IMG/VR virus record: IMGVR_UViG_2541047722_000016
From: a virus
Lineage: Duplodnaviria > Heunggongvirae > Uroviricota > Caudoviricetes
DNA: 7,864 nucleotides
Reading direction: 5' to 3' (one strand)
Position numbers and translations under genes: made by a program. Shown piece by piece: positions 4,620 through 7,864 of the stretch. Position 1 is the first letter of the stretch. Each line of letters starts with the position of its first letter. Below the pieces are notes generated by a model that was given only the letters and a program-made list of their open reading frames with translations, had not been told where the DNA came from and searched no databases.

Positions 4620-5002
4620 TGGCACATTCGATTACAGTAAGACTAAACAAACCCGCAAGAGAGTTTCAGGGCGGGGAAAATATCGGATTCAACATCCGTG
4701 CTGGCGTTCAGTATTACGATCGCCAGACAAAAAAGAAAGAATGGACAAACTACAGCGCCGTTGTATTTGCCAAGCCGGGAGCGCAAGCGGATTACTATCG
4801 TAGCGTTCTGGTTGAAGGAGGCATTGTAGAAATTACCGGAGAAAACATCAGGGTTGATGTTTATCAGGGGCAAAATGGTCAATCAATCACTCTTGAATTA
4901 CTGAATGCAAAGATTGGATTTGCAACTTCAGGAAACAGCCAACAGCAGCAAAGTAGCAATCATCAAAATAATCCTGAATACGACGATTCCATCCCATTCT
5001 GA
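4619..5002 (+). CDS. SSB-like OB-fold protein with an acidic C-terminal tail
   Basis: ATG at 4619 overlaps the erf stop (TAATG). Product MAHSITVRLNKPAREFQGGENIGF... ends ...NPEYDDSIPF, which resembles the bacterial SSB C-terminal DDDIPF tail. Confidence 0.65.
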   Translation: MAHSITVRLNKPAREFQGGENIGFNIRAGVQYYDRQTKKKEWTNYSAVVFAKPGAQADYYRSVLVEGGIVEITGENIRVDVYQGQNGQSITLELLNAKIGFATSGNSQQQQSSNHQNNPEYDDSIPF

Positions 5003-5025
5003 TTTAGAAAAATAAGGATTTAATT

Positions 5026-5322
5026 ATGCCAGCGCCTTTGTATGGTGCGGATGACCCGCGCCGCTGTTCCGGCAATTCCGTATCGGAGGTGCTGGATAAA
5101 TTCAGAAAAAACTACGATCGAATAATGTCTCTACCGCAGGAAACGAAAGAGGAAAAGGAATTTCGCCACTGTATATGGCTTGCAGAGAAAGAAGAACGCG
5201 AGCGAATTTACCAGACATCAATCCGACCATTCCGCAAAGCCACATATACCCACTTCCCTGAATATATCGACCCGCGCCTGCGTAATTACCGCTCACGCTA
5301 TGGCGCTATCAGTAATGACTGA
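5026..5322 (+). CDS. abc2: Abc2-like anti-RecBCD protein (98 aa)
   Basis: AAGGA lies upstream of the ATG. The 98-aa length and the position just after erf match P22 abc2; the sequence match is recalled, not verified. Confidence 0.5.
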   Translation: MPAPLYGADDPRRCSGNSVSEVLDKFRKNYDRIMSLPQETKEEKEFRHCIWLAEKEERERIYQTSIRPFRKATYTHFPEYIDPRLRNYRSRYGAISND

Positions 5323-5416
5323 GGAATTTACCATGAGAGGACTTGCTTAAGAGAAAGAGTTTCGGTTCTGTTAATGACAACAAATATCTGAATGCGATGT
5401 GGCGGAGTGGGAAGAA

Positions 5417-5935
5417 ATGAAACAAATGTCACTAATTGAGATGGATGGTTTTCTGAAAGGTAAATGCATCCCAAGTGATTTAAAGGTTAACGAAACAAAC
5501 GCTGAATACCTTGTCCGTAAGTTCGGTGAACTTGAATCAAAACTGGAAACGGCGTTGCGGGAGTGTAGTTCTGCTGGAATCACGATTGATAACCTTGAGG
5601 CTAAATGCGCGAAGATGGCTGCTGAAAATACCTCACTTAAGCAATCTGAGAAGGAATTTAATGACTTTTGTCGTGAGGAGTTTAGCGAATGGGAAGATGA
5701 TGTTACTGAAACCCCAGCCACCGATGCTTTTCTGGCTGAAGTGCGGGCGCAGGGGGTGGATGCTGCTATAGAAGCTGCAAAAAATCTGGTGGCCCAAGAA
5801 TATGAGTATAAGGATTTCAAAGCGGCGCAGAGTGATTGCTGTATGCACCCTGGTTCAGACCTGGTAGGGAAGGTTGAAATGACTGAGTGGTTAGTTGACT
5901 TTGCTGCCCAGCTTCGCAAAGGAGGCAACCAGTGA
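5417..5935 (+). CDS. Hypothetical coiled-coil protein in the ea region (172 aa)
   Basis: ATG at 5417 inside track ORF 5399..5935 (which opens at a GTG), with GGAG about 11 nt upstream. The central part is E/K/A-rich and predicted coiled coil. Confidence 0.5.
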   Translation: MKQMSLIEMDGFLKGKCIPSDLKVNETNAEYLVRKFGELESKLETALRECSSAGITIDNLEAKCAKMAAENTSLKQSEKEFNDFCREEFSEWEDDVTETPATDAFLAEVRAQGVDAAIEAAKNLVAQEYEYKDFKAAQSDCCMHPGSDLVGKVEMTEWLVDFAAQLRKGGNQ

Positions 5936-6231
5936 CTGTATGTCTTATTGATAAACGTCGACGTGGGCAACAAATACCATCTGTTGAAATGCCGAATCAC
6001 ACATGGTTTTGCGTACTTGATATCGATGGTATGGATACGTTGGTTGACACTCGTCATTACTGCGATACCGCAACAGCTACTCCGGCGAAAGCAAAGAAAA
6101 TGGCTGCTCTGATAGAAAACTGGACTCCACCTGATGGTTGGTGCAATGGGAATGATCGAGATTGGCACGAAAAAATGAAGGGCTATATCTGCGATTTTTT
6201 ACGTAAATGCAACGGCTTCAGGGGGATGTGA
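5932..6231 (+). CDS. Hypothetical protein (99 aa), GTG start
   Basis: GTG at 5932 with GGAGG 6 nt upstream; it overlaps the preceding stop (GTGA). Several Cys residues; no family recognised. Confidence 0.5.
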   Translation: MTVCLIDKRRRGQQIPSVEMPNHTWFCVLDIDGMDTLVDTRHYCDTATATPAKAKKMAALIENWTPPDGWCNGNDRDWHEKMKGYICDFLRKCNGFRGM

Positions 6232-6232
6232 T

Positions 6233-6805
6233 ATGACCAAAATTAACTATCAGGCACTGCGTGAGGCGGCAGAACGTGCAATTCCGGCAATGGAACGCCT
6301 GTTAATGTTGCCAGTTGATGATGATTTGTTAAGTGAACAGGAACTTAAGGATTACGGTGTGGATATTGATGCGCTCAACGCCTTCAAATTTCTGACCGGA
6401 CCAGAAACCGTGCTGGCGCTGCTGGATGAACGGGAAAGAAACCAGCAATACATCAAACGCCGCGACCAGGAGAACGAGGAAATTGCGCTAACGGTAGGGA
6501 AGCTGCGCGTTGAGCTGGAAGCTGCAGAGAAGCGCATTGCAGAACTGGAAGCCGAACCTGTAAGCCAAACTTACAAGTTGAACGAGCTGTCGGGCAACTA
6601 TCCGGTAACTCCGGATGGTTGGATAAGCTGTAGTGAGCGAATGCCCGCTCAAGATGATTGGATTTTAATTTATTCAAAGCACGGCGAGTATATGGCAGGA
6701 CAGGTACAAGGGGAATACGTGGAGTTGAGCGACGGCACTTTATCGTGGTTAGGGAACGCCTTGTACTGGATGCCTCTACCGGAACCGCCGCAGGAGGTTA
6801 ATTGA
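6233..6805 (+). CDS. ead/Ea22-like protein with a DUF551-like C-terminal domain
   Basis: ATG 1 nt after the preceding stop. The N-terminus MTKINYQALREAAERA is typical of Ea22-like proteins as I recall them; a central coiled coil is followed by a C-terminal ...DGWISCSERMP...WMPLPEPP. Confidence 0.6.
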   Translation: MTKINYQALREAAERAIPAMERLLMLPVDDDLLSEQELKDYGVDIDALNAFKFLTGPETVLALLDERERNQQYIKRRDQENEEIALTVGKLRVELEAAEKRIAELEAEPVSQTYKLNELSGNYPVTPDGWISCSERMPAQDDWILIYSKHGEYMAGQVQGEYVELSDGTLSWLGNALYWMPLPEPPQEVN

Positions 6806-7089
6806 TGGTCTCCTTCGCGAAATATACGATTATTGACTGGATAGCATTCATTCAGGTTTTGCTCATCTGGTTTTATATGGCTTACAGGAGTGGACAGTGG
6901 ATTGTCAGTGTAGCCTGTAGCAATGGATGGCGTTGGTGGAACCGAAAGAATAAAAAAGCGCTGGCCTTGGCTTCGTTTTACGAAGCATTCAATCTTAACA
7001 GTCTTCAGCCTGGTTTTGTCGTTGTAGTCACCACTCAAAGCGGCATGACGATACAAATTCACAAGCCAAAGGAGGAAGGTCGTGGCTAA
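6805..7089 (+). CDS. Small putative membrane protein (94 aa)
   Basis: ATG at 6805 overlaps the preceding stop (TGATG), with GGAGG 8 nt upstream. One hydrophobic segment (IIDWIAFIQVLLIWFYMAY) near the N-terminus. Confidence 0.5.
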   Translation: MVSFAKYTIIDWIAFIQVLLIWFYMAYRSGQWIVSVACSNGWRWWNRKNKKALALASFYEAFNLNSLQPGFVVVVTTQSGMTIQIHKPKEEGRG

Positions 7090-7366
7090 CCTGCAACTTG
7101 CCGTTAAAGGTGAATACTTCGATGCCATGATTCGCGGAGAGAAAACGGAAGAGTATCGCCTGTGTAATGACTACTGGAATAAGCGAATTATGTTCCGCGA
7201 GTATGACCGCCTGATTATCACAAAGGGATATCCGAAGCGCGACGATTCCAGCCGCAGAATTGACGTCCCGTATGACGGATATGAAATCAAGACAATCACA
7301 CATCCGCACTTCGGCGATAAACCGGTAAAGGTGTTCGCTATAAAGGTGAATATCGACAATGAATGA
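7082..7366 (+). CDS. ASCH (PUA-like) domain protein, GTG start
   Basis: GTG at 7082 with GGAGG 6 nt upstream; overlaps the preceding gene by 8 nt. The product contains GEKTEEYR, fitting the ASCH G-x-K-x-x-E-x-R motif. Confidence 0.5.
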   Translation: MANLQLAVKGEYFDAMIRGEKTEEYRLCNDYWNKRIMFREYDRLIITKGYPKRDDSSRRIDVPYDGYEIKTITHPHFGDKPVKVFAIKVNIDNE

Positions 7367-7438
7367 TAATCCTCGCACTCGCGGGGATTTCTTTTATCTG
7401 AACTCGCTACGGCGGGTTTTGTTTTATGGAGATGATAA

Positions 7439-7606
7439 ATGCACTTCCGAGTCACAGGTGAATGGAATGGAGAGCCATTCAACAGAGTTATCGAAGCAGA
7501 GAACATCAACGACTGCTATGACCACTGGATGCTGTGGGCGCAGATAGCACATGCAGACGTAACTAATATTCGAATTGAAGAACTGAAAGAACACCAAGCC
7601 GCCTGA
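7439..7606 (+). CDS. Small hypothetical protein (55 aa), not in the ORF track
   Basis: ATG at 7439 with GGAG 7 nt upstream. Product MHFRVTGEWNGEPFNRVIEAENINDCYDHWMLWAQIAHADVTNIRIEELKEHQAA. The stop lies inside the terminator hairpin. Confidence 0.4.
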   Translation: MHFRVTGEWNGEPFNRVIEAENINDCYDHWMLWAQIAHADVTNIRIEELKEHQAA

Positions 7607-7620
7607 TGGCGGTTTTTTAT
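7597..7620 (+). terminator. Intrinsic terminator
   Basis: AGCCGCC-TGAT-GGCGGTT hairpin followed by TTTTTT (7613-7618). Confidence 0.6.
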
Positions 7621-7663
7621 TGCCTGATTTGCAGGTTCGATTCCCTATTCGGAGATAGCACTC

Positions 7664-7864
7664 ATGCAACACGAACTACAACCTGATTCACTGGTTGATT
7701 TGAAATTCATCATGGCCGATACTGGCTTCGGTAAAACCTTCATCTATGACCGGATTAAGTCCGGCGACCTGCCAAAAGCCAAAGTTATCCACGGGCGAGC
7801 AAGATGGTTATATCGTGACCATTGTGAATTCAAAAATAAGCTCTTAAGCCGCGCCAATGGGTAA
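7664..7864 (+). CDS. AlpA-family / excisionase-like DNA-binding protein (66 aa)
   Basis: ATG at 7664 with GGAG 9 nt upstream. The HTH-like core DLKFIMADTGFGKTFIYDRIKSGDLP is typical of AlpA/Xis-type regulators. The stop coincides with the last base of the window. Confidence 0.6.
   Translation: MQHELQPDSLVDLKFIMADTGFGKTFIYDRIKSGDLPKAKVIHGRARWLYRDHCEFKNKLLSRANG

Follow-up and report, generated by a model that had tools for sequence, protein, structure and literature searches.

The DNA analyzed here is a 7,864-nt stretch of a caudoviricete genome (IMG/VR virus record IMGVR_UViG_2541047722_000016), called the window at its full length. Its + strand carries two overlapping genes, a DUF4752 family gene at 6805-7089 and an ASCH-like gene at 7082-7366. 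With a probability of about 0.72, these are two separate accessory genes that a lambda/P22-like Escherichia coli prophage carries in its early-left (pL, 'exo-xis') operon, where a cassette hot spot brought them next to each other. DUF4752 would adjoin the ASCH-like gene because the slot downstream of the Ea22/DUF551 gene is such a site of cassette exchange. The original prediction had described a specific and unusual partnership, to be given up if the two genes occurred independently of each other. They do so in E. coli genomes, in phage records and in IMG/VR, and neither E. coli, IMG/VR nor more diverse contexts revealed a conserved two-gene module beyond one mosaic lineage.

The gene pair itself is real. 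The first gene starts with ATG and the second with GTG, each encodes 94 amino acids (aa), and they share the 8 nt GTGGCTAA (7082-7089, + strand), which hold the ASCH start together with the stop codon of the upstream gene. The strong ribosome-binding site (RBS) proposed for the second gene is also present: AGGAGG (7070-7075, + strand) lies 6 nt upstream of the GTG, within the 3' end of the DUF4752 gene. A GGAGG (6793-6797, + strand) stands 7 nt before the DUF4752 ATG. The GTG start is backed by homologues with an ATG at the same position. On a 100% identical E. coli chromosome, RefSeq lists the same two coding sequences as WP_001621581.1 (DUF4752 family protein) and WP_000002106.1 (ASCH domain-containing protein), and the products match phrog_667 (1.6e-37) and phrog_625 (1.3e-51), respectively, both of unassigned function. 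Both genes are already catalogued. Among close alleles, the ratio of nonsynonymous to synonymous substitution rates is 0.44 for DUF4752 and 0.09 for the ASCH-like gene, which indicates that both are coding and that the latter is much more constrained.

Independent distribution and cassette exchange

A census of 5426 complete E. coli genomes located the ASCH-like gene at 1928 places in 1536 genomes and the DUF4752 gene at 601 places in 546 genomes. The contiguous pair is present in 266 genomes, corresponding to about 14% of the ASCH and about 44% of the DUF4752 copies. Phage records in GenBank number 333 with the ASCH-like gene versus 124 with DUF4752. ASCH without DUF4752 is found in virulent Salmonella Jerseyviruses, Ralstonia RSA1-type P2-like phages, a Brucella phage, a P1 variant and Shiga toxin (Stx) phages of the 933W/Min27 type. 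Among the IMG/VR loci, for which the 80 best matches per family were counted, DUF4752 is absent at 54 of the 80 ASCH loci. It is also absent in all five diverse ASCH contexts, and ASCH follows DUF4752 in one of 11 diverse DUF4752 contexts, the sole case being Kosakonia sacchari. A contig profile search with the DUF4752 alignment, whose patterns were too strict, confirmed three loci only.

The overlap, which had been taken as a sign of tight coupling, is not peculiar to the pair. Overlaps of 1-8 nt run throughout the operon, and the DUF4752 start is coupled likewise to the stop of the preceding Ea22/DUF551 gene, whose TGA the ATG at 6805 overlaps by 1 nt (TGATG). The same 8-nt overlap was found at 72 of 79 ASCH loci, at which only 25 of the upstream genes are DUF4752. 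Most of the genes upstream of ASCH are Ea22/DUF551 variants ending in …PQEVNRG, others include a Lar-family protein, and many unrelated ones end in …RG, …HG or …NG. The TAA stop of the upstream gene arises in codons 2-3 of the ASCH-like gene (GTG GCT AAC); the 8-nt overlap therefore travels with the ASCH cassette. No other membrane protein was found to replace DUF4752 upstream of ASCH: two of 59 upstream open reading frames (ORFs) were marginal by hydropathy, and both are DUF551 variants.

The exchange can be followed at the 3' end of the Ea22/DUF551 gene (…PEPPQEVN before the stop), a conserved mosaic junction that bears the RBS of the next gene. In other phages, the junction CCGCAGGAGGTTAA is followed by DUF4752 in some cases and by ASCH in others. 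The Stx phages PA28 and Min27 share 99% identity as far as CCGCAGGAGGTTAA. Past this junction, PA28 (locus L174, 2777-2817) continues with DUF4752, only the first 41 nt of ASCH and then an Ant cassette, whereas in Min27 (locus L179, 2500-2540) ASCH stands directly after DUF551. This is a clean cassette exchange at a GGAGG junction. As a cassette of 277 bp, DUF4752 is present or absent between two junctions that each contain GGAGG. The ASCH cassette carries its own 5' junction, consisting of the RBS and GTGGCTAA, and thereby also gives any upstream gene its stop, so that the 8-nt overlap is seen with every upstream neighbour.

Several different genes occupy the position after DUF4752 elsewhere. 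A 112-aa Zn-ribbon protein follows with the same 8-nt overlap in Enterobacter and Cronobacter, a 199-aa protein of unassigned function in a Klebsiella phage and DUF5448/Eaf in Salmonella phage SPN1S, while nothing is adjacent in an Stx1 phage. In HK106-type phages (HK106, locus L173, 2776-3708), the DUF4752 gene is a variant of 92 aa ending in …KPKEEK; after it come a 29-aa ORF and, in place of ASCH, a gene for a queuine tRNA-ribosyltransferase (DpdA-like transglycosylase). The slot after DUF4752 often carries DNA-modification or anti-restriction cargo. The Enterobacter and Cronobacter loci (L161-L165, 3278-3616) have the DUF551-DUF4752 block not in the exo-xis region but in the nin region, between DnaB and NinB; the 112-aa protein encoded there is Cys-rich (CGKCG…CPCxGDSQC) and has no Pfam match.

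The ASCH-like and DUF4752 proteins

The assignment of the second protein to ASCH held for fold and motif but fell short in the profile search. The Pfam ASCH match (PF04266) is sub-threshold (14.3 bits versus 21.2, E=0.068) and covers residues 6-28 only. The AlphaFold2 (AF2) model, with a predicted local distance difference test score (pLDDT) of 83.6, is a PUA-like beta-barrel superimposable on solved ASCH domains, which are its best solved fold matches. Solved examples of the domain are 3IUW from Enterococcus faecalis, PH0355 (2Z0T), E. coli YqfB (9KYF) and ZmASCH (5GUQ); the protein is 12-22% identical to solved ASCH domains. The octapeptide GxKxxExR is the defining feature of the ASCH family. 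In the window it reads GEKTEEYR (codons 19-26, 7136-7159, + strand) and coincides with the region matching Pfam ASCH; a 'conservative octapeptide' is named in the literature (PMC9599836). Across 64 diverse relatives of 40-80% identity, K21 is invariant and G19, E24 and R26 are at least 90% conserved. In addition, the family has conserved GYP and THPHFG motifs of its own, which distinguish it from known ASCH domains. Fold and motif point to RNA, a nucleoside or a nucleotide as the probable ligand of this minimal barrel, held in a cleft lined by GxKxxExR.

The family is large, with 671 clusters at the 90% identity level and 753 at the 50% level, and phrog_625, which is under strong purifying selection, occurs in temperate as well as virulent phages of Enterobacterales, Ralstonia and Brucella. 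Matches to PF04266 at E<0.01 were obtained for five of 64 and three of 40, that is eight of 104, family representatives (best 1.3e-4). Three of the 104 relatives also match DUF3850 (PF12961) weakly, a phage-rich ASCH-like family whose phage proteins are among the fold matches in BFVD; the window protein itself has no DUF3850 match, and the kinship is at the clan level only. A sequence search of the PDB with the single protein and with the 64-sequence profile gave no ASCH match and nothing significant. Scans of both the DUF4752 and the ASCH-like protein against NCBIfam and PADLOC (PADLOC-DB 2.0, E<=0.1) gave no match. A Pfam scan of 50 longer family representatives unveiled no informative extra domain and no Lar; an Ead_Ea22 domain fused to two longer representatives looks like the product of merged gene calls. 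One metagenomic representative (P0250, 364 aa) has a reverse transcriptase-like N-terminal region (…DRIVHHLLY…, …LDLANFFVSID…) before a truncated ASCH-like C-terminus. It has no Pfam match at E<=0.001; a chimera or a merged gene call is the probable explanation.

The first protein is an ordinary full-length member of the DUF4752 family (PF15944; PHROG 667), with 114.3 bits against a gathering cut-off of 27, E=2.7e-33 and coverage of model positions 2-84 of 84. Its homologues come solely from Enterobacterales prophages and phages, and a literature search found the family mentioned in no paper. The single transmembrane segment claimed for it is borne out as a prediction from hydropathy and positive-inside charge. 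Residues 8-26 (TIIDWIAFIQVLLIWFYMA; 6826-6882, + strand) are the top 19-residue Kyte-Doolittle window, with a mean of 1.82 against a threshold of about 1.6 for a transmembrane call, and neighbouring proteins score far below. The net charge is +1 on the N-terminal side and +6 in the 25 residues that follow, where the aromatic/basic belt WRWWNRKNKK comes directly after the helix. Helix and basic flank recur in 22 homologues with identities as low as 39%. The AF2 model has a long helix at residues 8-26 (pLDDT about 85) and is poor as a whole (pLDDT 63, predicted template modelling score 0.30). To judge from the sequence, the protein probably has a single N-out/C-in membrane anchor.

The DUF4752 gene also contains an A6 homopolymer (6952-6957, + strand), a recurrent +1/-1 frameshift site in its relatives. 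An indel falls exactly at this tract in six of the 26 ASCH-linked DUF4752 copies from IMG/VR (L087, L094, L095, L097, L100 and L113), and the ASCH-like gene is intact and about 99.5% identical there. The frameshift products of 73 aa and 55 aa form protein clusters of their own (P0135, P0141, P0144, P0136 and P0149). The indels could reflect real pseudogenisation, phase variation or homopolymer sequencing error. Programmed frameshifting was set aside as a default, as the variants are genomic indels and the tract has no slippery-site context. Most likely, DUF4752 serves enterobacterial temperate phages as a small accessory protein that is anchored in the membrane, can be dispensed with and often decays; in the proposed scheme it would combine its N-out/C-in topology with weaker constraint and frequent inactivation.

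Prophage context and expression

The window corresponds to the immunity and early-left region of a lambda/P22-like prophage of E. coli, with the cII and cro genes on the - strand; the + strand carries, in this order, a LexA-type cI, the Erf recombinase, the anti-RecBCD gene abc2 and several 'ea' genes, followed by the Ea22-like/DUF551 gene (6233-6805, 190 aa; Pfam Ead_Ea22 1.1e-29, DUF551 5.9e-11). Behind the pair come a 55-aa gene of the lambda p35-like phrog_676 (7439-7606, + strand, by PHROG match) and, as the last gene, a TorI-type excisionase gene, also on the + strand. A consensus scan placed a strong terminator-like hairpin 3' of the 55-aa gene (7596-7615, + strand), and the two together mark the end of the accessory block ahead of torI/xis. 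The scan also revealed two terminator-like hairpins with T-rich tails directly 3' of the ASCH stop (7368-7389 and 7400-7419, + strand), inside the pL operon, which may be N-suppressed terminators or cassette boundaries. Many E. coli chromosomes match positions 6233-7864 at 100% identity; there the prophage adjoins dsdC, the KplE1/CPS-53 site.

Between the terminator at 7596-7615 and torI, the string TGCAGGTTCGATTCCCTATTCGG (7621-7645) is similar to a tRNA T-arm and 3' end, and may be a relic attachment site or module boundary. A permissive Rfam search of 565 nt and a scan with ARAGORN found nothing credible at the ASCH 3' end or at the tRNA-like string GGTTCGATTCC. The same prophage is present in E. 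coli MS8345 (locus L001, 3596-7030 and 9058-9573) with IS4 and IS3 insertions, of which IS3 splits erf, and RefSeq calls the 190-aa Ea22/DUF551 ORF of the window a truncated pseudogene plus a small ORF there. The insertions, the split erf and the pseudogene call suggest that the prophage is probably defective in at least some hosts.

The pair occupies the same site as the exo-xis genes of lambda and Stx phages (ea22, orf60a, orf61, orf63, orf73 and ea8.5), from the recombination genes to xis, within the same early pL transcription unit, and the gene upstream of it in the window is an Ea22/DUF551 relative. Genes of the exo-xis region influence the choice between lysis and lysogeny as well as host physiology (PMC7093339, PMC3824215, PMC10789677). 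The exo-xis genes studied in these three papers include neither DUF4752 nor the ASCH-like gene, and no homology of the two to the studied exo-xis genes was found. The literature found on DUF551 concerns Ea22 and YfdS only and includes neither gene. No promoter-like (sigma-70-like) site was found on either strand of 5000-7864, where 4.1 were expected. Together with the position in the pL operon, this leads one to expect expression on infection or induction and not in the lysogen. Such silence in the lysogen would argue against a defence role encoded by the prophage. The ASCH-like protein would act alone, early in infection or induction, and one may guess at a host-takeover or counter-defence factor.

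Weighing of alternative readings

DUF4752 and ASCH could conceivably be the two components of a translationally coupled module in which a reader of modified nucleic acid controls a membrane effector, for instance in abortive infection or superinfection exclusion. The 8-nt overlap with its internal RBS would suit such a device, and PUA-superfamily domains are sensors in type IV restriction enzymes (PMC12191111). Contiguity in the 266 E. coli genomes speaks for it as well, and several further points tell at the same time against two merely adjacent accessory genes: ASCH follows at 71 of the 80 close DUF4752 loci in IMG/VR, a sample dominated by the mosaic lineage of the query itself; the pair recurs in Kosakonia with the same overlap, at 47% identity for DUF4752 and 80% for ASCH; the A6 frameshifts could be homopolymer sequencing errors; the transmembrane call is one of hydropathy, with a position-independent Hessa sum of about +2.7 kcal/mol that is marginal and an AF2 model as poor as described; and the biochemical roles proposed here are read from fold and motif. 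Some preference for adjacency, or a facultative interaction, may thus exist. A coupled module is nevertheless very unlikely. About 86% of the E. coli ASCH copies and about half of the DUF4752 copies are without the other gene, the overlap goes with ASCH in general, PA28 and Min27 carry the two genes as alternative cassettes, frameshifted DUF4752 stands beside intact ASCH, and ASCH is kept without a membrane neighbour in virulent and non-enterobacterial phages. Moreover, neither protein has a PADLOC match, and the scan gave no promoter-like site from which a lysogen could express the pair.

Other readings concern the ASCH-like protein alone. It might be an anti-restriction or anti-defence factor that masks or binds modified nucleic acid or sequesters a nucleotide, with DUF4752 unrelated to it. 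Such a role would fit a gene under strong purifying selection that is spread patchily yet very widely over the early regions of virulent as well as temperate phages, and the slot elsewhere holds Ant, a DNA methyltransferase and the DpdA-like transglycosylase. At six of 80 ASCH loci, for example L119, the upstream gene that overlaps ASCH belongs to the Lar family of restriction-alleviation genes (Pfam 1e-8), and a 168-aa viral 'Restriction alleviation protein' in BFVD (A0A8S5UN54) matches the ASCH model with a TMq of 0.74 at 27% identity. All this is circumstantial, however: the Lar adjacency concerns a minority of loci and could be an accident of the same hot spot, the name of A0A8S5UN54 is an automatic BFVD annotation, the 50 longer representatives brought no Lar or other informative domain, and a literature search on ASCH domains in phages gave no paper on this family. 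The reading is considered unlikely. That phrog_625 is an unrecognised stand-alone factor for counter-defence or host takeover, which binds modified nucleic acid or a nucleotide and cooperates facultatively with DUF4752 in this lineage, appears quite unlikely.

An enzymatic role as a YqfB-type N4-acylcytidine amidohydrolase that salvages modified nucleosides is highly improbable. The catalytic residues of YqfB are Lys21, Thr24, Arg26 and Glu74 (PMC9599836), and K21 and R26 of the window protein are conserved in the same register; hhalign places the octapeptide in register with YqfB residues 11-26. This alignment of the family profile with the YqfB sequence comprises the octapeptide only and is not significant (E=0.11). 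The nucleophile Thr24 is replaced by a conserved Glu24, which argues that the protein is not an amidohydrolase of this type, and the 94-aa barrel has no apparent counterpart of the helix segment with Glu74, a structural equivalence that was not tested.

With two separate accessory genes as the preferred explanation, the pair is a by-product of lambdoid mosaicism, and it calls for caution, as short overlaps in the packed operons of phages do not imply partnership. The interest that remains lies with the ASCH-like family alone, which recurs very widely in the early regions of phages, shows strong conservation and is still of unassigned function.
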